Shown in pieces: positions 4,051 to 63,998 of a stretch of 64,000 nucleotides of DNA. The stretch's first letter is position 1. Each line of letters starts with the position of its first letter. Source of the stretch: a virus (taxonomy: Duplodnaviria > Caudoviricetes). The stretch is taken from IMG/VR virus record IMGVR_UViG_3300022217_000228, positions 1-64,000 of that record; one strand, written 5' to 3'. The notes beneath the pieces are model-generated. The model searched no databases, had not been told where the DNA came from, and worked only from the letters and a program-made list of their open reading frames with translations. The position numbers were made by a program, and so were the translations under genes.

Positions 4051-4296
4051 ATGCTTTCTTATTACCAGTTTTTAGATGAGCTTTGTAAGAGGCACCATTC
4101 AGAGATGTTTTCCATTTTAACTTTTGTGGTAAATCGATTTATTCGTGATAAGAATCTTGATTTTGACCATATGGTTAAGTTTATCAAAGAGATGGGATAT
4201 ATGTTTAATAATAACAAAAATGATAGCCATCCAATAATACCGCTGGTAAGACGACAAAGGCGTATAAAGAGAGTGTTGAGGATTCGGAGAAGGTAA
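4051..4296 (+). CDS. Hypothetical protein
   Basis: Abuts both neighbours (translational coupling). Confidence 0.6.
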   Translation: MLSYYQFLDELCKRHHSEMFSILTFVVNRFIRDKNLDFDHMVKFIKEMGYMFNNNKNDSHPIIPLVRRQRRIKRVLRIRRR

Positions 4297-4568
4297 TGAA
4301 AGCCGTATTAATCCGCGGTAAGCTGATCAAGCTTGATGAAGAGGATTACCATTTGGTAGGTAATTACCGGTGGTGTCTCAATAAGGGTAAGGAAAATTTG
4401 AGTTGGTATGTGGTTCGAGGGAAGCGGGTGAATAAGAAGCTAATACGTGTATTTCTACATAGAGTGGTTGCCGGCGCCAAACCAGGTGATAGAGTAAGTT
4501 TTATCGGTAATGATACGCTGGATATGAGGAAGAAGAATCTGAGAAAGAACGGGAAACGTTTAATATAA
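4296..4568 (+). CDS. Degenerate HNH-family protein without AP2 domain
   Basis: LDEEDY..V..YRW, FLHRVVAG, VSFIGNDTLDMRKKNL; catalytic His absent. Confidence 0.65.
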   Translation: MKAVLIRGKLIKLDEEDYHLVGNYRWCLNKGKENLSWYVVRGKRVNKKLIRVFLHRVVAGAKPGDRVSFIGNDTLDMRKKNLRKNGKRLI

Positions 4569-4581
4569 ATAAATTAAAAGT

Positions 4582-4614
4582 ATATATTTCACATAATCAG
4601 TAGTTGGTGTCAAG
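4582..4614 (+). other. attI-like cassette entry site A
   Basis: ATATATTTCACA-9 nt-GTTGGTGTCAAG directly before the first + strand cassette; same 12-mer at 49297-49308. Confidence 0.55.
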
Positions 4615-4647
4615 TTTTTGAACTTTTAATTTGGAGGAAATTTTACT

Positions 4648-4956
4648 ATGTGGAGATTATTGGAAGTCGGTGAAGTTCGTCAGAGAGATGATGAATATAT
4701 ACTCAATGCGAATCCGTGGGAACCTATTGGGTCAATCATCGGAATACCGTTTAAAGATGGTGACAACCCGGTGCGCCGTAAAATTTCGGATAATTCGGAG
4801 GTTCAAAAACCAACCGCTAACATCGACTATACGGCGGTGCTTAAAAAGGAACTGAATCAATGGATTAATTCAGCGCCATCAGTTGTTGCCGAGAAAGATA
4901 TTCATCAATTTGCAGCGCACCTCAATGCCGTGATAAACAAACGGCACTGCACATAG
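4648..4956 (+). CDS. Cassette-borne hypothetical protein, translated through its attC
   Basis: GGAGG RBS; PTANIDYTAV is encoded by the hairpin left arm. Confidence 0.7.
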   Translation: MWRLLEVGEVRQRDDEYILNANPWEPIGSIIGIPFKDGDNPVRRKISDNSEVQKPTANIDYTAVLKKELNQWINSAPSVVAEKDIHQFAAHLNAVINKRHCT

Positions 4957-4973
4957 TCGAGAACCGTTGTGCG
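4814..4973 (+). other. attC-like site
   Basis: CCGCTAAC-ATCGACTATACGGCGGTGC ... GCACTGCACATAGTCGA-GAACC-GTTGTGCG. Confidence 0.8.
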
Positions 4974-5004
4974 AAATGTTTTTTTGAGAGTATAGGAGTT
5001 TGCC

Positions 5005-5235
5005 ATGACACTAAAAGAAGCATTTGATTTTTTGCAACAGAGGCATCGTGTTGTAGAAACCGAAAGCGATACCGAATCAAAATCATGGCAAGCTCTGAAG
5101 TCAGCGGTATTCGCTCAACAGCACTTAACAGGCGATAAAAACGAGCCGGAGGACATTACGCCCTGTGAACATGAGTGGAGGGCGGCGTGTACTCAGGCGA
5201 TTTGTAGGAAGTGTGGAGAAATATCAGATGATTAA
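5005..5235 (+). CDS. Cassette-borne hypothetical protein with Cys-rich C-terminus inside the attC loop
   Basis: AGGAG RBS; CEHEW...CRKCGE lies in the loop. Confidence 0.7.
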   Translation: MTLKEAFDFLQQRHRVVETESDTESKSWQALKSAVFAQQHLTGDKNEPEDITPCEHEWRAACTQAICRKCGEISDD

Positions 5236-5273
5236 CGACGGCGTAACGTCTTTTATCGCCGAACCGTTGGCCA
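5121..5273 (+). other. attC-like site
   Basis: CACTTAAC-AGGCGATAAAAACG ... CGTCTTTTATCGCC-GAACC-GTTGGCCA; same family as 63827-63992. Confidence 0.8.
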
Positions 5274-5277
5274 TAAT

Positions 5278-6048
5278 ATGAAAACACTTACAGCAGGACC
5301 ATTTTTATCAGAATTCGGATGGCTTATATGCTGCTGGATACCAGCCATCCGCAGATATAGCCGAAAGTTTGACGAGACTACAGTTGTATGCAGAGCAGCA
5401 CATGATTATTTGGTGGAGGATTTCGCTGGTGGTATTATACATCATGATAAAAAAGGGTTGCCAGATAGGTGGCTTTTGAATGGCAAGGAAACTCATATTC
5501 ATAAGCTTACTAAAAGGATGCTCGTTGGGGCCACTATCGTAGAGCCCACACAAAAAGTGTGCACCCAATGGAAACGTGAGTATTTTAAGTACGGTAAGAA
5601 ATATGAGGAATGCGCATATGATTTGGTTATCCATGCCCGGGCGTGCACGAAGTACGGTCAAAGATCGTGGAATTATCCGAAGCCACGATACAGAAAAGTG
5701 CTTGAAGCCCTGAAACCACAGAGAGTATGCTGCATAGGAACCGAAGCCAACTATATTGAAGGCACCGAGGACAAGAGAAACATACCATTAAAAGAACTAT
5801 GCGACATCCTGGCAAGCAGCAAAGTGCTGTTGTCGCCATCGAGCGGTCCTGCCCACCTTGCCTCTCTCTGTGGTTGTCCTCACGTAGTTATGACCGATAA
5901 CAAGTATCAGAAGTCGATCGGTGGGACGAATAGAGATAGATATAAGCGATTGTGGAATCCATTCCATACGAAGTGTAAAGTACTCGATAAAGATAACTGG
6001 CAGCCCCCTGTAAAAAAAGTTGTTAAAACTTTGGAGAAATTCTTATGA
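5278..6048 (+). CDS. GT9 (heptosyltransferase)-like glycosyltransferase
   Basis: LKELCDILASSKVLLSPSSGPAHLASLCGCPHVV matches the GT9 C-terminal motif. Confidence 0.7.
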   Translation: MKTLTAGPFLSEFGWLICCWIPAIRRYSRKFDETTVVCRAAHDYLVEDFAGGIIHHDKKGLPDRWLLNGKETHIHKLTKRMLVGATIVEPTQKVCTQWKREYFKYGKKYEECAYDLVIHARACTKYGQRSWNYPKPRYRKVLEALKPQRVCCIGTEANYIEGTEDKRNIPLKELCDILASSKVLLSPSSGPAHLASLCGCPHVVMTDNKYQKSIGGTNRDRYKRLWNPFHTKCKVLDKDNWQPPVKKVVKTLEKFL

Positions 6049-6281
6049 AAAGGTTACCAAGAGCAGATAAAAACGCCTTATTTAAATTAATAAGCGAATT
6101 AATGTCATGTGGGTTTAGAGGGTCAGCACAACGTGTTGTTGATGAAAACATTGATGAATATATAAGAGCGCAAATAAATGGTAATGAGTGGAAGTTCAAG
6201 TGTCCAAGATGTGGATGTAGATTTGCAAACGAAATAAGTAGTAAGTACTATTGTTATAATTGTAATGCTGAAATGCCATAG
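6045..6281 (+). CDS. Zn-ribbon hypothetical protein
   Basis: CPRC...CYNC. Confidence 0.65.
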   Translation: MKRLPRADKNALFKLISELMSCGFRGSAQRVVDENIDEYIRAQINGNEWKFKCPRCGCRFANEISSKYYCYNCNAEMP

Positions 6282-6317
6282 TTATGAAAATAACCTTCTG
6301 CTGTCAACACAATTATT

Positions 6318-6872
6318 ATGAGTGAATACCGCTTAATAAGTGACAAGCTGGTTAAAGCAAGCTTAATCACACTGAATTATCAATTTATTCCAACACTTAC
6401 TCATAACAGTATCTGGAATTTTGACATGAGTTTGCCGAATAGCCCACAAGTTGAATGTGCAAAACTTCTTCTAAGGCATGGTAGAAACTGGGGTAAGCTT
6501 AAATATTGCAGATATGCAGAGGATAGACGACATAGATACCGATGTGGTATCCATAAATGGACTGAAAAAGCCATTAAAGAACACATATTAGGCTCTCGGT
6601 ATGACATACTCATGAGTATAAAGAAGCGTGGATTTAGTAAAAAACTGAACGCAAAGCAGCCGATCACAGTGTTAATAGCTCCATTTTGGGCAACACGGTT
6701 TAATTTTAATGAAGAATGGCTTAACGGCCCAGAGATTTATCACGGTGGACGTCGATGTGCAGCTCTATACGCACTAGGGCATAAAACCGTACCGGTTCTG
6801 TGGGCTAAAGATAAACATCCTGGATCGTGCAAGGGTGGGAAATTTGAACAGAAGGTGCTGAGGTTTATATGA
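6318..6872 (+). CDS. ParB/sulfiredoxin-like domain protein
   Basis: EIYHGGRRCAALYALGHKTVPV resembles the ParB-N motif. Confidence 0.45.
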   Translation: MSEYRLISDKLVKASLITLNYQFIPTLTHNSIWNFDMSLPNSPQVECAKLLLRHGRNWGKLKYCRYAEDRRHRYRCGIHKWTEKAIKEHILGSRYDILMSIKKRGFSKKLNAKQPITVLIAPFWATRFNFNEEWLNGPEIYHGGRRCAALYALGHKTVPVLWAKDKHPGSCKGGKFEQKVLRFI

Positions 6873-16075: not shown

Positions 16076-16692
16076 TAGTCGGATTAATGGCACTCTGCAG
16101 ATTCCCGTATTATGTAAGATGTTTAGATTCATTATGTGAGTTAGTTGATAAAGTATATCTAAGATTCGATGGGATTACCGGAGATTATCGATTATATGAA
16201 GCTGCTCCAGGAATATGTGGAAATAAATTCGGGTCAATGTTTATTGGCAATACTATCTGGAATGCCTATAACTGGCGTGAAGAACTTCTTCGTTCAATAG
16301 ACGATGTTAAACCTGAACTCGTGTTATTTCCCGATGAGGATGAAATTTTTGGATTAGGAATTGAAGATGATATCAGAAGGTTCATGAAAAGCGACAAGCA
16401 GCAGCTTGCCTTTAATTACCAGCATCCTGCACCAACTGTAGATGGGTGGGAGCATAAGAAGCCCTACCCATCAGCACCTCACATCAAAGCGTATAAATGG
16501 AAAGAAGGATTAACATACATACCATACAAGAAGCGTGCAAGTCTTAGTAATTATGGCAAACTCAATTTCAAATTAGCGAAGAGTAAAATACTTCATTATT
16601 GCTTCTATACACCTGAATTGAGAAAGAATAAACTATGGAGTTGCCCGGAAAAGAAAGAATGGGCTAGAAAAATTGCAAAGAAACAAAAATGA
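16030..16692 (+). CDS. GT-A (GT2-like) glycosyltransferase (likely start 16072)
   Basis: RCLDSLCELVDKVY, VLFPDEDEIF, ILHY. Confidence 0.7.
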   Translation: MVYGGEALVLGGCEMIVGLMALCRFPYYVRCLDSLCELVDKVYLRFDGITGDYRLYEAAPGICGNKFGSMFIGNTIWNAYNWREELLRSIDDVKPELVLFPDEDEIFGLGIEDDIRRFMKSDKQQLAFNYQHPAPTVDGWEHKKPYPSAPHIKAYKWKEGLTYIPYKKRASLSNYGKLNFKLAKSKILHYCFYTPELRKNKLWSCPEKKEWARKIAKKQK

Positions 16693-17171
16693 AACCACTC
16701 CTACTATCCCAGAGAATTTTTTGCCTATTAGACGATAAAGATTATAATTGGCTTCACCACTGGAAATGGAGTATTGGTGGAACAAAAAACCGACGTTACG
16801 CACGTAGGAAGTTATCACATCCAAGTAATGGTAAAAAAGAATTTATATATCTCCATAAAATTATAGCTGGTGTTACCAATGATTTTACAATACGCTTCAT
16901 AGATAATAATCCGCTCAATTTACAACGCGATAATATATGTATAAAAAACCTCGCAAATGAAGACGTGTCGTGGAGAGGATCAAGTGGTGTATCTAATTAT
17001 ATCGGTGTCAAATGGGATGCCTATTATGGATTGTGGAGAGCAGAGATAAATGGATTGGTTGTAGGCTATTATGCAGAAGAAATGACGGCAATATTAGCAT
17101 ATAATACCAAAGCAAAAGAAATGTTGACTAATGAATTAAGATTGAATGGCACAAATGAGTTTGCAACCTAG
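16689..17171 (+). CDS. HNH-AP2 protein with degenerate HNH site
   Basis: LDDKDY..L..WKW, YLHKII; AP2-like SNYIGVKWDAYYGLWRAEI. Confidence 0.75.
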   Translation: MKPLLLSQRIFCLLDDKDYNWLHHWKWSIGGTKNRRYARRKLSHPSNGKKEFIYLHKIIAGVTNDFTIRFIDNNPLNLQRDNICIKNLANEDVSWRGSSGVSNYIGVKWDAYYGLWRAEINGLVVGYYAEEMTAILAYNTKAKEMLTNELRLNGTNEFAT

Positions 17172-19227
17172 ATATACCAACAAGTTAAAAGAGCTTCCCC
17201 CTGAAGCTTATGAGTATTACATGACTCACCCTGTGGAATTCGCACAGGAACAAATACTTGGGCTTTCACCTGATGATGTTAAGAAGGATCGGCTCTATCG
17301 GCGTTTAGAACCGCAAACCAAGTCTATTCTTTATAATATAGGGAAACATGATTATGTGTCGGTGTTCTCAGGCCGGGGATGCACAAAAACCACATCGCTT
17401 GCCCTTGCAGCAATCTGGTGGATATGGACTCGCAATGACGCCAAGGTTATGGCAACTGGTCCTAAATTCGAACAATTAAAAATTACACTTTGGGCAGAGA
17501 TAGCCAAGTGGCTTGATAAATCATATGTGAGTGATGAAGTGAAGCTAACAAGCGAACGCATATTCCATATCGATCCCAAGATGCATTCATTCGGTCAGAT
17601 AATGACATCTAAGGAAAAAGATAACATGGCCGGTGTTCATGCCACTCACGTATTGTGGCTCATAGATGAAGCGTCGAATGTCGATCAGGATATTATCGAC
17701 GCAATCTTTGGTGGTATGACAGACCCAGAGAGTAAGGTTGTGATGACCGGTAATCCAACCAGAGCATCAGGTCCATTCTTTGATTCTCAAAACAAATTTA
17801 GAGACCAATGGAGGTGCCTGAGATTCAGCTCAGAAGATTCTGCGCTTAAGAATAAAGTGTGGTTTTCGAGGATGCTACGGTATCCAAAGGAGTCTGATAT
17901 ATTTAGAGTTTATGTATTGGGCTTACCACCACTTGGAAACCCAAAGGCCATTATATCACTTGCAGATTGCCACGCTGCTGTCAATCGTGAAACTCCTGCT
18001 GAAGACTATCTTGAAATGGGTGTGGATCCTGCAAGGGAAGGAAATGATTTAACAGCCATAGCAATACGCAGAGGCATGAAACTTCTCGAAGTAAGGGTAT
18101 ATCCTAAGACTAAGGGCCCGGAAGTAATTGGATATACGCTTAAAATGCTACGAGAATACCGTGCAAAGACAGGTATTAAAAGCAGGGTAAAGATAAAGAT
18201 TGATGACCATGGGCTCGGCGGTCCGATCGGTGATGAGATGGCTTTGAATGAAATTGATAACATTGAAGTTATTCCATGCTTGTTTGGCGGTAAGGGTGAC
18301 GATCGATATACAGATCCAGCATCAATAATGTGGTTCGGACTTGCTGATATAATAAACGATGTAGAACTCTGTAACGATGAAGAACTCATTGAGGAGCTAT
18401 CTACTCGTGAATGGAATCCTTCTTCCGGTGGAAGAATGCAGGTTGAGCCTAAAGCTAAATACAAAGAAAGGCTTGGAAGAAGCCCGGATAGGGCAGATGC
18501 AACAGTATTGTGTTATTACGGCGGAGCAAAGAAAGTCTTTGAACTTCCTGATATTATCGGTGAAAAAGAAAACGATTTTGAAATAGATTGGAATTACGAA
18601 CACCTGACTGATGCATCGTATGGCGGTATATTCATGATAGATGTACTACACTATGCAGCACTTGTATTTAATAAAGACTTGTCATTCAACGGATTAGCTG
18701 CAGTATATCAATACTACTCAGATAAGCTATGGATTTATGAAGAGTTTTACCAAGACAGGCCAGAGCCTGATGTTATAGCTCGTGTGGTTAGAGCACTTAC
18801 TCATAAGGGGTTATACGATGATGACAGAGAAGTGCGAATAATTGGCAACGAACACATGTTCAGGCCAGATGGTGATCGTAGGCCGCTCTCAGACGTGCTT
18901 ATACATGAGAAGCTATATATATCAGAACCATTGAGATACGATGAATATGGGGCAATAGCATTTGGCTCTAAGATGTTTTCTGAAAATAAAGTAACACTAC
19001 ATAGAAAACTCACGCGTGCACGTCCTGCAATAAGCCTTTGGTCTGTAAAAAAAGGAACGCCTGAAACCGATGAGAATGGATACTGTAAGGCATTTTTACT
19101 TATATTAAGTGAAGTGAGGAGAAGGGTAAAAGAACGAAAGACAAAGAGAACGCCTAAAGATTATTCTCCAGTACATGTGAAATCGAATGAGAGAGAAAAA
19201 AATATGAACTCTTGGTGTGGGAGATAA
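17146..19227 (+). CDS. terL: Terminase large subunit with extra C-terminal domain
   Basis: Walker A SGRGCTKT, Walker B LIDEAS, TGNPT, nuclease motifs GVDPAREGND and SPDRADA. Confidence 0.95.
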   Translation: MAQMSLQPRYTNKLKELPPEAYEYYMTHPVEFAQEQILGLSPDDVKKDRLYRRLEPQTKSILYNIGKHDYVSVFSGRGCTKTTSLALAAIWWIWTRNDAKVMATGPKFEQLKITLWAEIAKWLDKSYVSDEVKLTSERIFHIDPKMHSFGQIMTSKEKDNMAGVHATHVLWLIDEASNVDQDIIDAIFGGMTDPESKVVMTGNPTRASGPFFDSQNKFRDQWRCLRFSSEDSALKNKVWFSRMLRYPKESDIFRVYVLGLPPLGNPKAIISLADCHAAVNRETPAEDYLEMGVDPAREGNDLTAIAIRRGMKLLEVRVYPKTKGPEVIGYTLKMLREYRAKTGIKSRVKIKIDDHGLGGPIGDEMALNEIDNIEVIPCLFGGKGDDRYTDPASIMWFGLADIINDVELCNDEELIEELSTREWNPSSGGRMQVEPKAKYKERLGRSPDRADATVLCYYGGAKKVFELPDIIGEKENDFEIDWNYEHLTDASYGGIFMIDVLHYAALVFNKDLSFNGLAAVYQYYSDKLWIYEEFYQDRPEPDVIARVVRALTHKGLYDDDREVRIIGNEHMFRPDGDRRPLSDVLIHEKLYISEPLRYDEYGAIAFGSKMFSENKVTLHRKLTRARPAISLWSVKKGTPETDENGYCKAFLLILSEVRRRVKERKTKRTPKDYSPVHVKSNEREKNMNSWCGR

Positions 19228-19266
19228 TATGTCTAAAATGCTCGAAATAGATATCAAGGTAAAGTA

Positions 19267-19647
19267 ATGGAAAGATATAAAGTAGATAACAATTTCATCG
19301 AATACGAACAGGTGTACGTTGATTCGATATTCAATATTCCTATCGTAGACAAATCTGGTAACGTGCTTGCCCGTGCAATACTCACTCAGAATGTTAGACA
19401 AGATACCCCAGGAAAGTTCAGTGAGGTGGTTATTCTTACCGATATCATTGTATACGATCCAAATGATAGAGGCAAAGGGCTCGGTGATAAAATCATGGGA
19501 TTCATCACTTCATGCGGCAGATTTGAAAAGATAGTTACCGGTATATCAACCAAAGCCGGGAGAGAACTTTGCCTAAAATGGGGATTTAAATACGATTTTA
19601 TTAAAGAAAAGAAGTTTTTAATATGGGAAAAGAAAAATGATACTTAG
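19267..19647 (+). CDS. GNAT-family acetyltransferase
   Basis: DRGKGLGDKIM acetyl-CoA motif; LKWGF. Confidence 0.75.
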   Translation: MERYKVDNNFIEYEQVYVDSIFNIPIVDKSGNVLARAILTQNVRQDTPGKFSEVVILTDIIVYDPNDRGKGLGDKIMGFITSCGRFEKIVTGISTKAGRELCLKWGFKYDFIKEKKFLIWEKKNDT

Positions 19648-20113
19648 TGGAAGAACCGATGAGCCTATAGATAGTTCTGGCAATATACCAAAATCTTTGG
19701 ATGAATATATAAATAGTCCTGCTGCAATTAAATCAGCAAAAAAAGCTATTGAAATGTGCCTTTCCGATAAGGCTGTTGTAAGAGCTGTAGTTGTAGATAA
19801 GAATAACTTCAAAGTAAAAGTATCTAAAAAAATGTGTAACAAAACGATATTCGTAGGCGATTGTCTTATTAGTATAGGTAAAGTAACATTTAATGAACAA
19901 AGAAGAATTGATAGTATAAAAAAAAATAATAAGGGTATAAAGAATATTGCCTTCACTATGACAAATAGAAAACTGATTAAAAAGCTATCAGGAAAGGAAG
20001 TCGACAATAAAACTGTTGACAAGACTAACCAAGAAACAATAAAGCCATGTAGCGAAACAAGCCAGAGTTGGGAAAGATATCGGGAAGCCAGGGTAGAATT
20101 TCAAGAAGATTGA
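19637..20113 (+). CDS. Hypothetical protein
   Basis: Coupled ORF. Confidence 0.6.
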   Translation: MILSGRTDEPIDSSGNIPKSLDEYINSPAAIKSAKKAIEMCLSDKAVVRAVVVDKNNFKVKVSKKMCNKTIFVGDCLISIGKVTFNEQRRIDSIKKNNKGIKNIAFTMTNRKLIKKLSGKEVDNKTVDKTNQETIKPCSETSQSWERYREARVEFQED

Positions 20114-20125
20114 AAGGAGACTGTA

Positions 20126-20260
20126 ATGCCGTTAACAAAAAAAGGTTCTAAAGTTATGAAAAATATGCGTAAAACTTACGGTTCTACGAAAAAAGCTGAA
20201 GAGGTGTTCTATGCTTCAAAAAATAAGGGGAAGCTTAAAGGAGTGTGTGGGAAAAAATAA
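20126..20260 (+). CDS. Small basic phage protein (MPLTKKG...VFYAS.NKG type, 44 aa)
   Basis: AAGGAG RBS; resembles a small ORF type common in uncultured phages; it takes up the annotated 20211 start of the next ORF. Confidence 0.75.
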   Translation: MPLTKKGSKVMKNMRKTYGSTKKAEEVFYASKNKGKLKGVCGKK

Positions 20261-20261
20261 T

Positions 20262-21248
20262 ATGGCTAAAGTATGCTTTTCTTCCGTATGCACTGCAGAT
20301 AGTTATTCATACTATATCCCGCTCTTCATATACACAACGAAGAAGGCTTATCCTAATGCGACAGTAAAGGTATTCGTTAAAGGAAAACTCAAAAATGATA
20401 TCAAAGAAGCACTTAAATTAATACCATACAAAGGATGGGAAGTATTAGAAAGTTGTTTTGCTTCATACCCGAATAAACCATTCATAACCAATTGCTTAAG
20501 ATTTCTTATTGATGAGAGGTATTACAAAGGATATGACTATGTTTTCGTTAAAGACATAGATTTTCTTATCTTTCCGCACAAAGTCTCTCATTACAAATAC
20601 TTTTCAAGACGTATTAAAAATCTTCCTTATTTCGGCGCAAAAGGTCCATACAGACGACCGAGAAGATACCACATAAATAGGGGGGGTTGGAAAGGGAATT
20701 TCACCAGAGTGGCTGGAGGTTCATTCTCATTCAAGAATCCTGCATGGTTTCGAAAAACAGGAAAAATACTCAAAGAATACAGACGTTATTTGAAGCACAA
20801 TGAACACGATAAATATGATAGCCACCCTCCTGGATCATATCGAGAATGCGATGAAGTAATGCTGTTCCGTATTATAAAGAAATCGGGACTTCCTACTCCT
20901 AGGAGAAAGAATAAAAACGTGTATGGCAAACGTGCACCTAAAACATACAGAGATATTCACTTAGGCGACTTTGGAAAAGCACGACATTCCTATAGAAGAA
21001 TATCGAAAAGACTAACTCTTGAAAACGTGAAAAAGTACGCAATACTTGAGAAGGATCCAATATGGAGAAAGCTACGAAAGAAGATGAGAACAAGCGCAAG
21101 GGTGAGGGAAGCGATTCGTCGACTAAGGAAGTATACAAAACGCCGCTTGAATTTATCTTCCTTATCCGTGGGAGGAACTGCGCAACCACAATTGAAAAAT
21201 GCATCCGTTCAATTAGAAGACAAACCTACAAGCACTGGCACGCAATAA
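20262..21248 (+). CDS. Putative GT-A glycosyltransferase
   Basis: LRFL...YDYVFVKDIDFL (DxD motif), DE near the C-terminus; the ORF track starts it at 20211. Confidence 0.55.
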   Translation: MAKVCFSSVCTADSYSYYIPLFIYTTKKAYPNATVKVFVKGKLKNDIKEALKLIPYKGWEVLESCFASYPNKPFITNCLRFLIDERYYKGYDYVFVKDIDFLIFPHKVSHYKYFSRRIKNLPYFGAKGPYRRPRRYHINRGGWKGNFTRVAGGSFSFKNPAWFRKTGKILKEYRRYLKHNEHDKYDSHPPGSYRECDEVMLFRIIKKSGLPTPRRKNKNVYGKRAPKTYRDIHLGDFGKARHSYRRISKRLTLENVKKYAILEKDPIWRKLRKKMRTSARVREAIRRLRKYTKRRLNLSSLSVGGTAQPQLKNASVQLEDKPTSTGTQ

Positions 21249-21859
21249 TAGTACTCGATGCTCCTACCGATAATTCTGAGCAAATCACAAAATCACTCAT
21301 AGAAAACGATAGTCGATTTCATCTTACTGTTAACAAAAGGCAGCTTGGTGTCTGCGGAAATATGTATCATATAATAAGATACACGTCAAAAACATTTCTC
21401 CCGTATGATTCCAATGTTGGAGTAGTAGTCGATGCTGATGATTGGATAAGCAAGGATGCTTTAAGGACGGTTGAAAAGGTCTTTAGAAAACATCCTGACG
21501 CGTTGATCACTCATGGCAGCTATAAAAAAATGTCACGAGGACGACGAACGAAAATAAGCAGGCCATATCCGAAGCACGGAAACATCAGAAAATTACCATG
21601 GCGCGGATCCCATATGAAGACAATTAAATGGAAAATTCTTAAAAAAGCTAGACCTTCGTGGTTTCAACACAAAGGGAAGTGGCTTGGTGCCGCAAGTGAC
21701 TTAGCATTAATGTTTAATTGTGTTGAAATCAGTGGGTTAAATAAAACAAAACATGTGTACAAAGTTATTTATTACTGGAATGACAATACCACTAAAAGGA
21801 AAAGAATGTTGGAAAAGAAATGTGAGAAGGTATTGAGAAATAAGGTTAAGAACACATAG
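21062..21859 (+). CDS. Family 2 glycosyltransferase
   Basis: KCIRSIRRQTY, IVLDAPTDNS, VVDADDW, ASDLALMF. Confidence 0.88.
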   Translation: MEKATKEDENKRKGEGSDSSTKEVYKTPLEFIFLIRGRNCATTIEKCIRSIRRQTYKHWHAIIVLDAPTDNSEQITKSLIENDSRFHLTVNKRQLGVCGNMYHIIRYTSKTFLPYDSNVGVVVDADDWISKDALRTVEKVFRKHPDALITHGSYKKMSRGRRTKISRPYPKHGNIRKLPWRGSHMKTIKWKILKKARPSWFQHKGKWLGAASDLALMFNCVEISGLNKTKHVYKVIYYWNDNTTKRKRMLEKKCEKVLRNKVKNT

Positions 21860-45800: not shown

Positions 45801-47957
45801 CTATCCCGGTATTGCAGGAGATTCATTTCCAAGTCTGTTTATATTCTGAACTCGCTGTTCTCTTTCCGTAGGCATTGATTGTTCTTGTGCAGGTCCGACG
45901 CTCATTGCTGCAGGTGTTGCTTGTTCTGGAATACTTGGCTGTTGTGCCCCTCCCTGCATTTTGGCCTGCATATTCTGCATCATTCCTTGAAGCTGCATCT
46001 GCATCGATTTCGCTTCCATTCCCTGTGCTTTTAATCCCTCGATTTGGGTGAACAGCGACAGTATATCACGCATTTCTTTAAGTGTTCGCATGCGCTCAAT
46101 CTTCAACTGCTCTTCCGGTGTTCTTTCTATGGTACTGAGAAGATCGTATGTGAGCATCTGGATTTCCTCTTTAAACAATTCCGGATGAGCAGATAGCATC
46201 TTGGTTGTATCGAATAGTTCAAGCCTTTTCTCCATGCGTTTTGTCGGAGAAGATTTTGAAAGCCGAACAACAACTCTTGCGCGTGGAAGATCGCTTATTG
46301 AGTTTATATAAACCTTTTCCCTGCCTCCATTTTGATTCGTTCTAAATGCAGGAACATTGAATTCAACCTCTCCGCTACCGCCGGCCATAGGGATTTTACG
46401 ATACAAATCTTTGTACGAGATTTGAGCTTGGTTGTACCATGCTTCTGCCTTATCCATAAGGAATTGCTGCCAAGCACCGTATAGGCGTAGTGTTCCGAGC
46501 TTTGTGATTTCATGGCGCAATTCAAGAAGAATGCCAGATTGATCCCTTTCGGCAGCCCCTTCGAGTGCAGGAGTAACAGGCGTTACTCTATCAAGCAGGT
46601 CGATTATTTCATTAACCTGTCTAAAAATGTGCTCCGGAACTTGTCCAACTGGAAATAATGCAGCTACATTATCAGGAGGGCCATCAACGGCATGAACGTA
46701 ATCAGGACGGGTTTTATTCTGCATTATTTTTTGAACACCCTGTTTGCCGCCAACTTTGTTTTGATCAACAAAGGTTGCTCCTGAAGCGGCAGCAGCAATA
46801 ACGTCATCCATCTTTGATTGTCGATAATTAAGTGTTCTGTTTAAATCGAGGCCGTATTCGAATACGCCTTTTCTTATACCAAACATTTTGTTGGAAGAGA
46901 ATTCGAATAGACCTATCATCCCAGGTTGTGTAGGATGTTTTCCTCTGACGAAAACCAAATCAGGTGCAATTCCGGTTAGATCAGGTGATATAATACCATA
47001 ATAAAGAATATTGTCTTCATACGGAAATTCTCTTATATCTGACCAGGTTATACCCGTTTTTTCCTTAAAATCACGTACTTGATCTTCCGTTACTTTTAAT
47101 GGAAATGCAAACCACTCGCCAGTTTGCATTTTTGCATGTAGGCGAGTGGTTCTTAGCTTTTCAAGCCAACGGTATTCGGTAACGAGATAGCGTGATCCAC
47201 TTTTTGTCGGCAGGTTTTCCCATGCCCGTACATCATCGCCTTCATTGGCGTAATCATAGCCTATCGCAAAATCACGTTCGGCGAGTTTTCTTACACTATC
47301 ATCGCGGCAATCAAGCTCTTCTATCATCATTTCCGGAGTGAGGTATCCGTCTATCATGGCCTTACGCCAGTTTCGTATCTCGTTGTCCTGCCAAAAAGGA
47401 TCCGAAAGAACGGTTCCATCCGTGCAGTGCTTGAAACTTATTGCACCTGTTCGTCTGATATCATAATCAAGACACATCATTTGTACACCGGAATGTAGTA
47501 ACCCCGACATATTTGACTGATTATCTGCTGTTTCATACTTGTACTGATCTTTATCGGCGAAATACCAATGCTTTATAGAGTCTATGAGCGTGTTTTCGTC
47601 TATATCCAATGCTTTAAAATCGAAATCGAAGCGTTCTGACATCAATGAGCCACTTAGGGTTTCCATTTTTTGTTTTAATATATTTATACTTGTTGGGTGA
47701 CGATCGGCGTTTAGTAGTTGGTTGCGTTCTGTTTCAGGCCACATTCCTCCGTTAATATCCATGAATGCCTGCATTGCATCATAATATCGTTCTCTTGAAT
47801 CTTGATGACATGCAAGCCAGCGTGTGTGGAGATCTTCGACATGCCGAACGAATTCCCCATCAGATGAGCGCATCCGCATGGAGGTTTTAGTGTTTATGTT
47901 AGCTTTTTCTATCGGGAATTCTATGTCGGAAGTGAGATGTAGTGGATACTTGTTCAT
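45801..47957 (-). CDS. Portal protein (P22/podovirus-like)
   Basis: 718 aa; FMDINGGMW, SINILKQK, Q-rich C-terminal extension; first gene of the head module. Confidence 0.8.
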   Translation of the reverse strand: MNKYPLHLTSDIEFPIEKANINTKTSMRMRSSDGEFVRHVEDLHTRWLACHQDSRERYYDAMQAFMDINGGMWPETERNQLLNADRHPTSINILKQKMETLSGSLMSERFDFDFKALDIDENTLIDSIKHWYFADKDQYKYETADNQSNMSGLLHSGVQMMCLDYDIRRTGAISFKHCTDGTVLSDPFWQDNEIRNWRKAMIDGYLTPEMMIEELDCRDDSVRKLAERDFAIGYDYANEGDDVRAWENLPTKSGSRYLVTEYRWLEKLRTTRLHAKMQTGEWFAFPLKVTEDQVRDFKEKTGITWSDIREFPYEDNILYYGIISPDLTGIAPDLVFVRGKHPTQPGMIGLFEFSSNKMFGIRKGVFEYGLDLNRTLNYRQSKMDDVIAAAASGATFVDQNKVGGKQGVQKIMQNKTRPDYVHAVDGPPDNVAALFPVGQVPEHIFRQVNEIIDLLDRVTPVTPALEGAAERDQSGILLELRHEITKLGTLRLYGAWQQFLMDKAEAWYNQAQISYKDLYRKIPMAGGSGEVEFNVPAFRTNQNGGREKVYINSISDLPRARVVVRLSKSSPTKRMEKRLELFDTTKMLSAHPELFKEEIQMLTYDLLSTIERTPEEQLKIERMRTLKEMRDILSLFTQIEGLKAQGMEAKSMQMQLQGMMQNMQAKMQGGAQQPSIPEQATPAAMSVGPAQEQSMPTEREQRVQNINRLGNESPAIPG

Positions 47958-48328: not shown

Positions 48329-48994
48329 CTAGGTGCCGGAAACAATTCTCCAGGTGCGTTGATTATCCCATTTTTGGATAATGCAAGCTACCTGTTTTCT
48401 GCTGCTTCCGCCTTGGGGGATTGGCCAACATGGGTATTCCCAATCCAATACGTGGCCGAATTTTTCGGGGATTTGCACTTTAATCTTTTTGAAGTCTACC
48501 CACATTAATTTATTAACGTAATCAGACGGGATGCCGAGGGCTATCGCTTCGGTTTCATCGTTATATCCCCATCTGTTTGAATCGAATTTTGATTCTCTTA
48601 CCCATCTGCCGCTTTTGGACCACCACCAGAATCCTTGAAAATTGAAACCTATCCAGTGACAGAACTTTGCTCTCTTTGCCCCGCGCCTTAGTGTAAACCA
48701 TGTGGCCATATCAGTATCTTTTCTTCTCGCTACTTTCTCGCGGGAGAAAAACATGTTCTTTTCCCTGAGGTATTCTATATAATCATCAAGTTGTTTCTTG
48801 GTGATACCATCAGCATGGATGCACATATCGATGTCGTTGTCATGGCCTATAAAATCGTTTTCGCGTATGATACCGAGAAGAAGGCCGAAATTAACGAAGA
48901 GTTTATCTTTTATACCAGCTTTTTCTGCGCATTCGTAGCATATGGACAGATCCTCTGTAGCGTACAATTTTCTCTGATAATCAAAAAAAGCCAT
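48329..48994 (-). CDS. LicD-family nucleotidyltransferase-fold protein, paralog 1
   Basis: FVNFGLLLGIIRENDFIGHDNDIDM; KVQIPE...LDWEY. Confidence 0.85.
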   Translation of the reverse strand: MAFFDYQRKLYATEDLSICYECAEKAGIKDKLFVNFGLLLGIIRENDFIGHDNDIDMCIHADGITKKQLDDYIEYLREKNMFFSREKVARRKDTDMATWFTLRRGAKRAKFCHWIGFNFQGFWWWSKSGRWVRESKFDSNRWGYNDETEAIALGIPSDYVNKLMWVDFKKIKVQIPEKFGHVLDWEYPCWPIPQGGSSRKQVACIIQKWDNQRTWRIVSGT

Positions 48995-49005
48995 TAATGT
49001 CCTTT

Positions 49006-49136
49006 TTCACAACGGTCCGCGAATATGTGCAGTGCTGGAGCCATCCGGCTTATTTACGCGCCTTTGGGCTGGTGCCGAAACCCGCATAATCCAACTTAGT
49101 AGCACAACCAGCATTGCATATATTCGCTGTTGTATG
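49006..49136 (-). other. attC-like site of a solitary cassette
   Basis: CATACAAC-AGCGAATATATGCAATGCTGG ... CCAGCACTGCACATATTCGC-GGACC-GTTGTGAA. Confidence 0.85.
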
Positions 49137-49283
49137 TTGAAGGAGATTTCCTCCATAGTGTAAAAGCGATATGTTAATTATTTTTCCCGGACGGAACGGC
49201 CTTATCCGATGTTCCGTATATTTGATAATTAACTCTCGGATGCGATATCGCATTACAACCATAAAAGAAATCTCCTTTTGCAT
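49050..49283 (-). CDS. Cassette-borne hypothetical protein (likely start 49262)
   Basis: AAGGAG RBS just after the entry core; HTTANI is encoded by the hairpin arm. Confidence 0.6.
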   Translation of the reverse strand: MQKEISFMVVMRYRIRELIIKYTEHRIRPFRPGKIINISLLHYGGNLLQHTTANICNAGCATKLDYAGFGTSPKARK

Positions 49284-49308
49284 ACAACTATATTAGTGTG
49301 AAATATAT
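49277..49308 (-). other. attI-like cassette entry site B
   Basis: ATATATTTCACA-8 nt-GTTGTATGCAAA. Confidence 0.55.
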
Positions 49309-49347
49309 TATTCAAGTAATGCACTACATAATTAGAACAATGTCATT

Positions 49348-50049
49348 CTATTTCAAGCCTTTACAAGTCTTAATTTTTTTCACCCACGGAGTCATACTCT
49401 GTCCTTTATAATACTCCCTGAACCGCCACGATGGCGAATACCAGGTGTCAAGCAGGTGTCCGATTGCAAAAGGGAGTCTCATGGTTAATCCCGATTCAGA
49501 TCCGAATACTGGCATTTTCCAGGTACCTAACTCAGTTAGCATGAGTTCGCGTCCAGGCTTACCAATCTTTCTTTCCTTCTCTATTACTTCCTGAGATGGG
49601 AGAAGCCATTCTTTCTTCACCCCTTTGAACACATATTCCGGTGGAACCTTCTGTCCGGTTTTCTTTGTATCATATGTGTGATACAGCAACTCTCCTACTG
49701 GGACCCAGAAGTACACGTCTATAGTTGGGGTGCCTTTTAGGAAATCCTCACCGGGTTTAAGGTGCACGTTAAAACACTTGCCGTTAATGTCATTAACACA
49801 CATCTTTTTGGCCTTGTATCCATGGCCTGTGAATGAGTTGATAAGCTTGTTTTCATCACAAGCGCCATAAATGACACCGATATCAATATCATAATTGAGG
49901 GAGAAAGTTTTATCACAAATGTATTCGAGCATTCCGCCAAAGCAATGGCACCACCATACTTTATGGCCCATATTATCTTCCATCATATCCATTATGTTTG
50001 TAACACTATCAAGAACCATTTTGGCGAGTTCAACTTTTTCATCAACCAT
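49348..50049 (-). CDS. LicD-like nucleotidyltransferase-fold protein, paralog 2
   Basis: CFGGMLE...YDIDIGV, IDVYF, MRLP...LLDTWY. Confidence 0.7.
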   Translation of the reverse strand: MVDEKVELAKMVLDSVTNIMDMMEDNMGHKVWWCHCFGGMLEYICDKTFSLNYDIDIGVIYGACDENKLINSFTGHGYKAKKMCVNDINGKCFNVHLKPGEDFLKGTPTIDVYFWVPVGELLYHTYDTKKTGQKVPPEYVFKGVKKEWLLPSQEVIEKERKIGKPGRELMLTELGTWKMPVFGSESGLTMRLPFAIGHLLDTWYSPSWRFREYYKGQSMTPWVKKIKTCKGLK

Positions 50050-50329: not shown

Positions 50330-51254
50330 AAATTATCAACTCCCGGAGATGTTTTGCCGCTACTGGAATTGATAACTCGTTATCATAAGTTTCTCTGAGT
50401 TTTAATCGTTTATATGCAAGATCAGATTTTTTAATCGCTACAGCTACAGTATGCCAGAATGATTTTGAATCCACTGTTCGAACCGGATACTTCTCTTTCC
50501 AAAATTGACAAGAATCTAAGGCGATAACCGGAATGCCGCAGGCCAGTGACTCTGGAATTATTCGTGGGCATGAATCTTCGCTTGTGTATGGGGCAATAAT
50601 CACCTTGCATTTAGATATCGCTCGTGGCATTCGATCGTGCTGTATGTATTTTACCGAGAAGTTTGAAGGAGATCGGCAGGCGTGTCCCATTTGGAGAATT
50701 TTCAAGCCTTTCGGAGCAGTTTTATGCACCCATGAGACACGCTTCCGCTTATCCTTCGGCCATATTGCGGAAAATCCTACATCGTATTTTTTTTCGACAG
50801 TACGTGGAAAAAACTGTGGAGTTGCAGGTTTAATGAATAATTTCCCATTCAATCCGCGCTTTCTGCATTTTCTAACCTGTTCTTCGCTGTCACAGAGGAT
50901 CAGATTGTATTTAATACCGTCCTTTGGGATACATCCGTGGTTGGCACCGTAGTAGACTTTCTTAGCTCGTGGATATTTTTTTAGTAAAGGAACGTATTCT
51001 TTGAATCCTCCACGAGCAATAACTATATCAGGACAATCAGCTTTATATCCTTTAAAAGATTTAGTTCCAGATTCAACAAAATTAGAACGATAATAAACTC
51101 TCCTATCATCATTACTATATAAAACCCTACCATAATCTTCTTCACTGACCACTCCGGCAAACAGATGGGTCCACATGTCCGTGCACTCATCGAGTGAGTT
51201 CCAGGCACATTCTTTATGCCGTTCCATGCGGCCTCTAAGAAATAGCCAATTCAT
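50322..51254 (-). CDS. GT4-like glycosyltransferase
   Basis: EDSCPRIIPESLACGIPVI. Confidence 0.8.
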   Translation of the reverse strand: MNWLFLRGRMERHKECAWNSLDECTDMWTHLFAGVVSEEDYGRVLYSNDDRRVYYRSNFVESGTKSFKGYKADCPDIVIARGGFKEYVPLLKKYPRAKKVYYGANHGCIPKDGIKYNLILCDSEEQVRKCRKRGLNGKLFIKPATPQFFPRTVEKKYDVGFSAIWPKDKRKRVSWVHKTAPKGLKILQMGHACRSPSNFSVKYIQHDRMPRAISKCKVIIAPYTSEDSCPRIIPESLACGIPVIALDSCQFWKEKYPVRTVDSKSFWHTVAVAIKKSDLAYKRLKLRETYDNELSIPVAAKHLRELIIYG

Positions 51255-52180
51255 AAAACTCTTTCGAAAAATGTTAGATACTGCCGTGCTATGTTATCTA
51301 TATACAAATCTTTGGCAAATATATTGTCATGTTTCCAAGTTAGTACACTTTTCATGGCATTGATAAGCTCTTCTTGGTTTATTTTTGGTGGTTTGTCGAG
51401 ATTGATTGGTTTGTATTTGAAAGGCTTATCCTTTAGCACTTTACCGTATCGCAGTATCTCTTTCGTTCCACCTTGATCGGTGCAGATTACCGGTAGCCCG
51501 GCTATTTGGGCCTCTACAACGCTATTCGGCGATGCATCCACGTATGTTAAATGGATCATAGCGTTGCATTTACAGTAAAAATTAGCTATAGTATCATCAT
51601 CACATAGTCCACAGAATATTACATTGTGTGATAAATATTTTTTCCATATACCTTGACTATCTCCTAATATATAGATATAACTATTTGCTATATTTGCATC
51701 ATTGAATGCTTTAACAATTTGCTTAAGCCTTTTTTGTTTCAACCAAACACGAGTACTTGCCATAAAATTTATTCTATCATCGTCATCATGGGAAGGTATA
51801 TTATACTCTCTCGGATCAGCCCCATTAAAAATAATCGTTTCCGGCTTATCTGGATGGCACACGAGCTTGTGGTAGATTTTCTTCGAATACTTTGATTGGT
51901 AGATTATGGCATCTGCCTTCTTGATACTCTGGGCCTTTTCGTGGTTGATTTTGCGGTAGTTCATTTGAGTTGAGATACAGGCCGGACCAACGCGGAGAAC
52001 TTGTTTTCTTGCCTTGTTGGAATAATGGCAGCGGCCCACATTTAAGGCAATATCAGCCTTGGCTTTTGGATCCTCAGTAATATTAACACCCATCTCTTTC
52101 CAAGCTCTAACAAGGCGGTTTGCGAACTTTGATTTTCCCGTTTTCCCACGTAGGTAATGGCTATTTATTTGGATTCGCAT
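51251..52180 (-). CDS. GT4 glycosyltransferase, paralog of 10682-11605
   Basis: IIYQS, IIFNG, DASPNSVVEAQIAGLPVI. Confidence 0.9.
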   Translation of the reverse strand: MRIQINSHYLRGKTGKSKFANRLVRAWKEMGVNITEDPKAKADIALNVGRCHYSNKARKQVLRVGPACISTQMNYRKINHEKAQSIKKADAIIYQSKYSKKIYHKLVCHPDKPETIIFNGADPREYNIPSHDDDDRINFMASTRVWLKQKRLKQIVKAFNDANIANSYIYILGDSQGIWKKYLSHNVIFCGLCDDDTIANFYCKCNAMIHLTYVDASPNSVVEAQIAGLPVICTDQGGTKEILRYGKVLKDKPFKYKPINLDKPPKINQEELINAMKSVLTWKHDNIFAKDLYIDNIARQYLTFFERVL

Positions 52181-52392
52181 AATACCGGAACCTTACCATC
52201 GTTCCATAAATAATAATATTTATCACCAATTTTTATAGGCTTTAACCGATTTTTCTCGGCCCATCTTATTAGTGCATCTAGCTCTTCATTGCTTAATTTA
52301 ACGTCTGGTTCATGTTTTATTTTCATTAGATAATATCCAACCAAACAAATAAAAAGGGCAGGGGTGAGAAGCTCGAAAAGAAACCGCCCCAT
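52165..52392 (-). CDS. Small membrane protein
   Basis: N-terminal transmembrane segment. Confidence 0.5.
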   Translation of the reverse strand: MGRFLFELLTPALFICLVGYYLMKIKHEPDVKLSNEELDALIRWAEKNRLKPIKIGDKYYYLWNDGKVPVLCESK

Positions 52393-52460
52393 TTAACGGA
52401 TAGACCGACCCTATTTTTAATCATAATGAGTTTTCGAGCCTCATCTATAATATATCGTCA

Positions 52461-53072
52461 TTAATCATCGATGTCAATATAATAATACCGCCTTCTCTTG
52501 GTGTCATATGTAATATCGCCCATCTTCAGCGAACCGGTAGTTTTCAACCCTGCAGCTTTCATCTTTCTTTTTACCTTGGCTACAAATCTCAAATACCCCT
52601 CTGGATTATGTTCTGGATGCTCTTTCTGATCAAGGCAATTGAAATCATATGGATAGCCCCTGAGATAATCATTCCATGCTTTTTCATGGTAGTGTATATG
52701 GCGGGTTTTTACCCCATATGCTTTGGCTCGATGTCTCGTATTTTTATACAGAATATTAATCTGTACTGTTATTATCTTCTCCGCCGGTGGAGATAGGCCT
52801 AGTGCGTGAAGTTTGTTTTGCTTTCGAAACATTCTTCTTACGTACCGGAGCTTTTGCGCTTTTTTCCATGCCAGGCTGTAGTAAACTTGGATCCCGACGT
52901 TTTCGCTTTTTCTTTTGTAAATCTTCACTCTTCCCTTCAACAGGAGTTCTTTCCCGAGCAGAAGTCCGTGGCATCCTTTTAGACGACCTTCTTTGTCTGT
53001 TTGATGTACCCGATCTGCTGGTGGTTTTAGTTTTACCCTCGGTATCTGTTTCGCCACCCCTCGTATCTCCAT
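52461..53072 (-). CDS. Putative kinase-fold protein, paralog of 15482-16075
   Basis: VGIQVYY, YDF...HPEHNPEGY, MGDITY, YYID. Confidence 0.5.
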   Translation of the reverse strand: MEIRGVAKQIPRVKLKPPADRVHQTDKEGRLKGCHGLLLGKELLLKGRVKIYKRKSENVGIQVYYSLAWKKAQKLRYVRRMFRKQNKLHALGLSPPAEKIITVQINILYKNTRHRAKAYGVKTRHIHYHEKAWNDYLRGYPYDFNCLDQKEHPEHNPEGYLRFVAKVKRKMKAAGLKTTGSLKMGDITYDTKRRRYYYIDIDD

Positions 53073-53820: not shown

Positions 53821-53878
53821 ACTTTCTCCTTTTTTATCAGTATATATTAAACATTTTTCTGTGACATCATTTTGGCGT

Positions 53879-63826: not shown

Positions 63827-63992
63827 TCCACCAACGGATTGGCGATAACAGAAGTTACGCCGGTTGATAATTACTAAGACAATCTACCGAATTAATTTTC
63901 CACATACAATTAAGACCACCAACGCATCGTGAACAATTAGGCGTAATTTCCCCTTCGGGCAAGGCTTCCGCCGTGTTATCGCCTGTTGTAAG
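63827..63992 (-). other. attC-like site S16
   Basis: TCCACCAAC..GGCGATAACA ... TGTTATCGCC-T-GTTGTAAG. Confidence 0.88.
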
Positions 63993-63998
63993 CTGTGC
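63855..63998 (-). CDS. C-terminal part of a cassette gene entering from the right edge
   Basis: LTTGDN...EITPNCSRC...C...C resembles HLTGDKN...DITPC of 5005-5235. Confidence 0.5.
   Translation of the reverse strand, partial: AQLTTGDNTAEALPEGEITPNCSRCVGGLNCMWKINSVDCLSNYQPA

Follow-up and report, generated by a model that had tools for sequence, protein, structure and literature searches.

How did two small genes come to stand between a 90-amino-acid (aa) open reading frame (ORF) and a glycosyltransferase (GT) gene in a phage whose main array of gene cassettes lies elsewhere in the genome? The question is raised by positions 4583-5277 (+ strand) of the window, by which we mean bases 1-64000 of the 73,346-bp IMG/VR virus record IMGVR_UViG_3300022217_000228 (CheckV completeness 96%). 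The main cassette array (57.1-64.9 kb) and a solo cassette (49.0-49.3 kb) of the same genome are both on the - strand. The satellite locus consists of a 20-nt head motif followed by two cassettes, with G|TT junctions at 4603, 4966 and 5266, and each cassette has a single ORF with a ribosome-binding site (RBS), as well as an imperfect hairpin of the same geometry as in the main array. Our best reading is that the locus is a small integron-type array that has no recombinase of its own and resembles a CALIN (cluster of attC sites lacking an integron integrase), its two cassettes standing at an attI-like motif that is present in three copies. From the sequence comparisons we consider it probable that the cassettes were inserted site-specifically at this head by an Xer-type recombinase supplied in trans and that their sites decayed afterwards.

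The junctions themselves are the simplest evidence that the satellite belongs to the family of the main array. A position weight matrix (PWM) trained only on the 18 junctions of the main array was used to score ~147,000 positions on both strands. The junction at 4966 reached 17.7 bits, a score within the range of the training set, and that at 5266 reached 13.8 bits; outside the training set they rank first and third, with the solo cassette at 49013 in second place, the next position at 11.4 bits and all others below 9, so that membership of the family is far beyond chance. Both junctions carry the main-array signature (A/C)C GTT R NNNN (C/A)AA. The hairpin geometry of the main array, which runs AAC, 1-2 nt, stem, returning stem, 4-6 nt and GTT, is present at both with 8/8 stem pairs each, here in the form of an R'' box xxxxxAAC, a 1-nt spacer, a stem of 8-10 bp and, after the returning stem, 5 nt (GAACC) and GTT. 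A crude scan by geometry only, which both junctions pass, gives ~6.5 false matches per genome, or an estimated ~0.002 per GTT, so that geometry is supportive and yet insufficient alone. Two adjacent junctions that were selected by the PWM and both pass for geometry are not a chance occurrence. The folding free-energy z-scores are modest (-1.5 for site 1 and -2.95 for site 2) and are weak evidence taken alone, and Rfam gave no match within 4400-5400. In three orthologous copies the basal stem of site 1 reads TCGACTAT/ATAGTCGA, GCGATTAT/ATAATCGC and CGGGCTAT/ATAGCCCG, with compensatory changes in 4/8 pairs and no pair broken. The two-cassette satellite is thus a confirmed observation; the initial annotation had placed its GTTs at 4603, 4966 and 5266 on the + strand, with the ATG of the GT gene 12 nt after the last G, and had described the architecture as that of the main array, and the positions, the PWM ranks and the shared hairpin geometry all agree with this.

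Cassette 1 measures 363 nt from G|TT to G|TT (4603-4966, + strand). Its 102-aa ORF (4648-4956, + strand) is preceded by the RBS GGAGG at 4633-4637, and the 3' third of the ORF is overlapped by the attC-like site 1 (4814-4974, + strand). The left arm of this site is composed of R'' (CCGCTAAC, 4814-4821), the spacer at 4822 and L'' (4823-4830), and the 8-bp stem is closed by L' (4953-4960), which holds the stop codon TAG at 4954-4956; the spacer GAACC (4961-4965) and R' (GTTGTGCGA, 4966-4974) follow. Cassette 2 is 300 nt long (4966-5266, + strand) and has a 5' untranslated region (UTR) with the RBS AGGAG (4994-4998), a 76-aa orphan ORF (5005-5235, + strand) and its own attC-like site 2 (5122-5274, + strand), composed of R'' (CACTTAAC, 5122-5129), the spacer at 5130, a 10-bp stem formed by L'' (5131-5140) and L' (5251-5260), the spacer GAACC (5261-5265) and R' (GTTGGCCAT, 5266-5274). 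The tail GTTGGCCATAAT (5266-5277, + strand) abuts the start codon of the GT gene and has no counterpart in relatives; it is presumed to be the right half of the original docking site.

The cassette nature of the first unit does not depend on this genome. Its protein has two word-indexed homologues, and both are encoded by cassettes of other arrays: 352->738 in L008, a 7-kb contig with ~11 junctions, and 552->924 in L009. Further arrays with a site of the site 1 type are those of L215 (16 junctions), where the orthologue of cassette 1 is 4908->5211, and L216 (12 junctions). In L008, L009 and L215 the orthologues have the same boundaries, DNA similarity starting at the left GTT and ending at the right GTT, and the neighbouring cassettes differ. 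The gene is a cassette in L216 as well, and in L208 it is found with degenerate ends. That last copy (L208:950-1400) is a full-length orthologue standing alone in a replication module between YpsA-like and helicase genes, with cores that read GTC... at the start and GTTTAC at the end, and it looks like a fossilised cassette. Cassette 1 also has a 20-nt UTR segment, TTGGAGGAAATTTTACTATG, in common with the main-array cassette 60847->60474; as a probe, this 20-mer, which is short and prone to off-target matches, returned one match, an unrelated one.

A profile search with the cassette 1 protein against 1.8 billion representatives revealed a modular protein, with a repeat unit in the N-terminal ~50 aa and a C-terminal tail of ~55 aa. 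The tail, NIDYTAVL...AAHLN...KQHCA-stop, is the translation of site 1 (4814-4960), its stop codon sits within the L' arm, and it is fused to many unrelated N-termini (P0085-P0155). The N-terminal module MWRLL..GE..GD...PVRRKIS (window 4648-4800) occurs as 3-9 tandem repeats in proteins of 200-600 aa that have no assigned function, one of which has a weak match to KOW below the cut-off. No usable indication of a cargo function came from Pfam, PHROGs or the protein atlas for either cassette protein.

The same tail leads to arrays that do have a recombinase gene beside them. In the contigs L209 and L210, the tail-bearing P0085 is encoded by the first cassette right after the gene for a 273-aa tyrosine recombinase, and the site of this cassette and site 1 have 74% identity over 185 nt (E = 6e-29). 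The head there reads TTTCATCATAACTTA|GTT directly after the stop codon of the recombinase gene, its counterpart in the window is TTTCACATAATCAGTA|GTT, and the gene upstream of the head in the window phage is the 90-aa ORF and not a recombinase. The L209 enzyme has XerA_Arch as its best NCBIfam match (197 bits) and reaches 145 bits against the integron integrase TIGR02249, split in two stretches and below the cut-off of 265; its nearest solved structures are XerC-like 4a8e, XerA 5hxy and IntI4 2a3v. From these matches we classify the L209/L210 recombinase as Xer-like.

In the window phage the head motif marks more than one place. The 11-mer TATATTTCACA has 3 copies in the genome, against an estimated ~0.1 expected, and all are at array heads, at 4583 (+), 49307 (-) and 64908 (-), each 8-9 nt before the first GTT of its array. 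The three heads read TATATTTCACA(T/C) and then 8-9 nt with TA at the end; the satellite copy, TATATTTCACATAATCAGTA (4583-4602, + strand), abuts the first G|TT and could be an attI-like docking site and/or a promoter. Outside the 14-nt motif the flanks are not common to the three loci, so that duplication of a larger block does not account for the heads. The 14-mer TATACGGCGGTGCT used as a probe, which is again short and off-target, produced 117 chance matches and no arrays.

A comparable layout is seen in the relative G003, which has a genome of 71 kb and a GT with 52% identity to that of the window phage. Its main array (L206, G003:C1:21126-24139) has ~5 cassettes after a primase-like gene and is headed by CGCATAGCAAGTA|GTT, and the identical 14-mer head occurs once more before a solo cassette that has GT2 on one side and GT on the other (L071, G003:C1:34000-44000); both G003 arrays are headed by the core CATAR-N4-TAGTT. 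At these two loci, as at the three in the window phage, the head is placed a few nt ahead of the start or RBS of a conserved gene. A main array with outposts behind the same head has thus been found twice independently. The G003 solo cassette is homologous to cassette 63835->63542 in the main array of the window phage, and by this homology one cassette family can occupy the main array in one phage and an outpost in another. Elsewhere in G003 (L213, G003:C1:67829-71069), the first 300 nt of the reverse strand hold about four tandem ~70-nt repeats with CCCGACAGTCGGGGGGA hairpins upstream of small ORFs, which are unrelated to the cassette sites.

The idea in the initial annotation that cassettes also colonise other loci in the genome is supported by these data, since the satellite belongs to the same family, cassette 1 recurs in other arrays, relatives are without the pair, and common heads are found at three loci here and again in G003. 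This suggests that an integron-like capture system is able to place cassettes at several points of a single phage genome.

If the cassettes were once circles, a trace of this would be expected at their ends, and such a trace is present across the family. With R'' set by geometry only and 37 cassettes from 9 arrays pooled, Watson-Crick pairs were counted between R'' and two candidate partners. R'' was complementary to the start of its own cassette at 173/222 variable positions (78%), as opposed to 88/222 (40%) for the adjacent next core, and this preference for the distant start over the adjacent core is what the opening of a circle at G|TT leaves as a scar. Among the mismatches to the own start, A.C (G.T on the bottom strand) outnumbers G.T by 22 to 5, compared with 34 to 23 in the control, a weak hint that it may be the bottom strand that folds, as in integrons.

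The two satellite cassettes depart from this rule, and for cassette 1 the reason can be traced. The L215 orthologue has the same 5' end as cassette 1 (GTTGGTGTCAAG..., GTTGGTGTCAAGTTTTTG) and an R'' box, CCACCAAC, that is complementary to it. The R'' of cassette 1 in the window, CCGCTAAC, is two transitions away from CCACCAAC, and the mismatch of its scar is thus explained as decay by point mutation. A codon insertion splitting this R'', proposed from L008 alone, was dropped because L208, L209 and L215 have the same length and two transitions suffice. The initial annotation had noted weaker entry-core matches at the satellite and had proposed that the insertions may be older; the matches are 5/9 in both cassettes, or 2/6 variable positions, which is in fact chance level, and the two transitions relative to the intact L215 orthologue lend the proposal specific support. 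The decay of this R'' would fit an insertion that is old or no longer mobile.

Cassette 2 is a more solitary case. Its protein matched only itself among 5.8 billion proteins. Its site was assigned in the initial annotation to the site family of the main array, and the comparison bears this out: the nearest relative of site 2 is the main-array site that has its end at 63835, their right arms agreeing at 26/35 positions, the maximum of 666 site pairs, and with the blocks AACAGGCGATAA, ATTACGCC, CGGCGTAAC and TTATCGCC in common. The further claim that its protein resembles the fragment at 63855-63998 did not hold, since BLASTP against 63858-63998 gives no alignment, and the likeness is one of short peptides dictated by the common DNA site only. 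The 5' UTR of cassette 2 resembles that of main-array cassette 64233->63835 and the ORF bodies are unrelated, a pattern of kept ends and a swapped ORF that is likewise seen between cassette 1 and L215. At 5111-5119, 10 nt upstream of the canonical position, lies a box, TCGCTCAAC, that agrees at 8/9 positions with the cassette start (an estimated ~1-2% chance) and may be a displaced former R'' of cassette 2.

The setting of the locus is that of a rearranged genome. In the eight nearest loci the gene order is the 90-aa ORF, a small-terminase-like gene and TerL, then, further along, GT2, a 101-114-aa ORF, GT and GT1_4, and further still GT1, a 184-aa ORF, GT2 and radical SAM; the GT gene is preceded there by GT2 and the 101-114-aa ORF with overlapping stop and start codons. 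In the window phage the order is the 90-aa ORF, the head, the two cassettes, GT, a new 78-aa zinc-ribbon ORF and the 184-aa ORF, with the terminase block at 16.7-21.8 kb and GT1_4...GT1 inverted at 54.8-51.3 kb. Homology to relatives ends at the stop codon of the 90-aa ORF and resumes exactly at the start of GT (ATG/TTG/GTG + AAAAC), so that the 709 nt from 4569 to 5277 are novel DNA at a synteny breakpoint.

Relatives do not carry these ORFs, a point on which the initial annotation had wished to see its proposal tested. None of the 8 close and ~60 more distant relatives has satellite ORFs or junctions beside the GT or 90-aa gene, and no junction or head motif was seen near GT in 61 viral loci (~0.5 Mb) or in L001-L007. 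The nearest whole-genome relatives, G001, G002 and G004, have no arrays. A junction-like motif upstream of GT in L012 follows an ordinary 132-aa ORF (guessed to be nuclease-like) with no hairpin cassette and was treated as chance. An integrase of G001 was considered as the array enzyme and set aside, as it lies beside an excisionase-like ORF with no array and looks like part of a lysogeny module. GenBank phages gave no DNA or protein match to the region or to either cassette protein. An empty allele of the satellite would join ...CACATAATCAGTAG to TTGGCCATAATATG, and because the locus is a synteny breakpoint such an allele cannot exist in the known relatives. Searches for it in viral contigs with single proteins (GT and the small terminase) found nothing, and a scan for the head pattern gave 0 matches in viral contigs and 15 in metagenome contigs, all unrelated to arrays. 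At the solo cassette, the flanking genes abut or overlap (ATGA) in G004, and homology to G001/G002 resumes a few bases past the last GTT. That interval (48994-49348) is variable on comparison with L211, L212 and L214, and G001 and G002 each have two other small ORFs there with no GTT junctions.

Taken together, the reading that we favor would proceed as follows. Each cassette would have started as a circle. Its site, folded as R''/L''...L'/R', would have been cut at G|TT and then joined to the G|TT that follows the head, the cassettes presumably entering singly. The reaction would be catalysed by a compact tyrosine recombinase of the Xer type, of the kind encoded beside the same head and site family in other phage contigs, and it could have been supplied in trans by a co-infecting phage, an ancestral phage or the host. 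The two cassettes would now be read together with the downstream glycosylation and packaging genes, and since their sites have decayed after insertion they are probably fixed.

Several points weigh against this reading. Its basis is entirely comparative. The genome, at 96% completeness, lacks a gene for any tyrosine, serine or Y1 recombinase; a PF00589 search of all 73 kb of the record came up empty with a limit as loose as E <= 10, and the best tblastn match of the L209 recombinase to this genome is only E = 1.2. G003, which does bear arrays, encodes no tyrosine recombinase either. The complementarity between R'' and the own start is at chance level in both satellite cassettes. The geometry of the sites, with spacers of 1 and 5 nt and cores other than GTTRRRY, departs from that of canonical attC sites as generally described. 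The empty or alternative allele that the initial annotation had asked for was not found by scans with exact patterns. Finally, as the locus is a synteny breakpoint, a rearrangement could have delivered the head and the cassettes as a block. An ORF upstream of the main-array head that resembles a tyrosine recombinase by eye (a likeness to HxxRHS) had no tblastn support.

Delivery as a block is the alternative that survives best. On this account, general or illegitimate recombination brought in the head and the two cassettes as one fragment of an older array, so that the cassettes are genuine and the locus is no docking site. The pair does lie exactly at the breakpoint of rearranged packaging and glycosylation modules, the genome has no recombinase, and R'' complementarity to the own start is at chance level in both cassettes. 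We nevertheless regard such a transfer as rather unlikely, because the same head stands before the first cassette near gene starts at three loci here and at two in G003, because the head flanks beyond the 14-nt motif are not common, and because the mismatch in cassette 1 comes down to two point mutations relative to an intact orthologue.

A second alternative is that the hairpins are regulatory repeats, that is, RNA or transcription signals, and that the genes between them are shuffled by homologous recombination between repeats with no dedicated recombinase. A precedent would be the PeSLs of T4-type phages, which Arbiol, Comeau and Krisch reportedly described in 2010 as units of a promoter and a stem-loop that are thought to recombine by homology. 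Like PeSLs, the satellite has small accessory phage ORFs flanked by conserved stem-loop repeats and shuffled between genomes. The retention of 5' UTRs and sites around swapped ORF bodies, in cassette 2 relative to 64233->63835 and in cassette 1 relative to L215, would be in keeping with this, as would the translation of the sites, which could act in mRNA too, and the lack of a recombinase in the genome. Unlike PeSLs, the family has fixed G|TT boundaries, at one phosphodiester in independent arrays, a circular-permutation scar, and a tyrosine recombinase gene that abuts arrays of the site family in relatives. A role in RNA or termination also does not predict that R'' pairs with its distant own start and not with the adjacent core. 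Furthermore, 4200-6400 contains 8 promoter-like matches where 5.7 are expected, which is not above shuffled sequences, and 0 terminator-like sites, although the promoter type searched for may not be that of the host, and the hairpins have no Rfam match. This alternative thus appears improbable. The notion that these are ordinary small phage ORFs with fortuitous GTTs, or misjoined reads of the main array, could point to the modest hairpin z-scores and the orphan protein of cassette 2, but it is effectively refuted by PWM ranks of 1 and 3 among ~147,000 positions, by the orthologous cassettes with their covariation and by the finding that 4560-5290 has no exact repeat of more than 20 nt in common with the remaining genome, which makes repeat-induced misassembly unlikely; the geometry of both junctions also speaks against it.

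The satellite can be compared with known systems. A classical integron has one attI beside one integrase, CALINs are defined in IntegronFinder as clusters of attC sites without an integron integrase, and a canonical attC site has the core GTTRRRY, roughly symmetrical spacers of ~5 nt, an unpaired central spacer and extrahelical bases. As in integrons and CALINs, the cassettes here are co-oriented, promoterless-looking units of one ORF, each ending in an imperfect hairpin with ...AAC and GTT... cores; orthologous cassettes have G|TT boundaries, R'' is complementary to the own 5' end family-wide, and the array has an attI-like head. The two sites are 300 nt apart in a genome with no integrase, as in a CALIN, and the locus is not a complete integron, which would have IntI with its specific extra domain next to attI. 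The cores GTTGGTG, GTTGTGC and GTTGGCC do not fit the GTTRRRY consensus as it is commonly given, and the R-L spacers of the two arms are unequal, at 1 and 5 nt. Further differences from integrons are that translation of the ORFs continues across the site, a conserved tail of ~55 aa being encoded in its loop, that the enzyme linked in relatives is a 273-aa Xer-type protein with an integron-integrase match below the cut-off, and that the docking motif is present in three copies within one genome. A further likeness is to the Xer-linked arrays of L209/L210, whose junctions fit the same PWM and whose hairpin geometry and head motif agree with those of the satellite, one site there having 74% identity to site 1; in contrast to those arrays, the window phage has no recombinase gene and the satellite R'' boxes are mutated. 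A search of the literature for Xer-linked cassette arrays in phages found no paper.

Virulent phages have been reported to carry at least 2 attC-type sites without an integrase; most of the cassettes point the same way, and their cargo includes orphan methyltransferases (Qi et al. 2023, PMC9892861). In the part of that study considered here, canonical attC models served to detect the sites, and IntI1 recombined them. The main array of the window phage has a putative methyltransferase-like cassette, as the reported clusters do, and differs from them in the non-canonical design of its sites. That part of the study describes neither several docking sites per phage nor an Xer-type partner (PMC9892861).

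The flanks and the wider genome complete the picture. On the left, the 90-aa ORF (4296-4568, + strand) has 45-52% identity by tblastn to L001/L002/L007 and is kept in relatives, where it is ahead of the small-terminase-like gene and TerL; the initial annotation had called it a degenerate HNH gene, and it has no match in Pfam or PHROG. On the right, the GT9-like glycosyltransferase gene (5278-6048, + strand) starts with an ATG at 5278, 12 nt past the G at 5266. It has 62 homologues, some of them named heptosyltransferase in their source and one carrying PF01075, and it was rejected as a third cassette as there is no site downstream of it. Genes run on the + strand to ~22 kb and on the - strand from there on, with TerL at 17146-19227 and the portal gene at 45801-47957. 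The packaging and glycosylation modules (4296-6318, 16689-21844 and 51254-54841) are rearranged at no fewer than 4 breakpoints relative to the eight relatives (90aa|sTer, GT2|GT, GT|GT1_4 and GT1|184aa), one of which holds the satellite array, and the inverted GT1_4...GT1 block sits between the main array and the solo cassette. The breakpoint between GT and the 184-aa ORF is filled by the orphan 78-aa zinc-ribbon ORF (6045-6281), which has a weak match to Zn_ribbon_IS1595 below the cut-off, no attC-like site and no homologue in any fetched locus. Outside the window, a hexanucleotide tandem repeat (CGGCTA/CGGCGA units, read as GYG/GDG in one frame) lies on the - strand at G000:C1:65290-65500, ~400 nt upstream of the main-array head, and is followed by a strong sigma-70-like promoter, TTGACT-N17-TATAAT.

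The satellite is an extension of the finding of the main array and not a discovery of its own. What it adds is a docking motif in several copies, a link to the recombinase-proximal head found elsewhere, and a decayed site that can be dated, in a virus without a recombinase whose three docking motifs are all occupied, a pattern repeated in a related phage. It also provides a natural comparison of intact and decayed sites that should be useful for defining what the recombinase requires. Somewhat speculatively, this group of phages could rely on an integron-like system of the Xer type that acts in trans, each genome having several portable docking motifs a few nt ahead of conserved genes or operons, so that cassettes can be plugged into different transcription units, here the operon for glycosylation and packaging, and recombination between dispersed sites may have driven the module rearrangements; we put this forward as a possibility that is open to considerable doubt. 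Should the motif prove to be a real target of recombination, phages would not be limited to one 'hyperplastic' region for the capture of cassettes, accessory genes could be placed inside late structural and glycosylation operons, and the enzyme responsible could be shared between co-infecting genomes.

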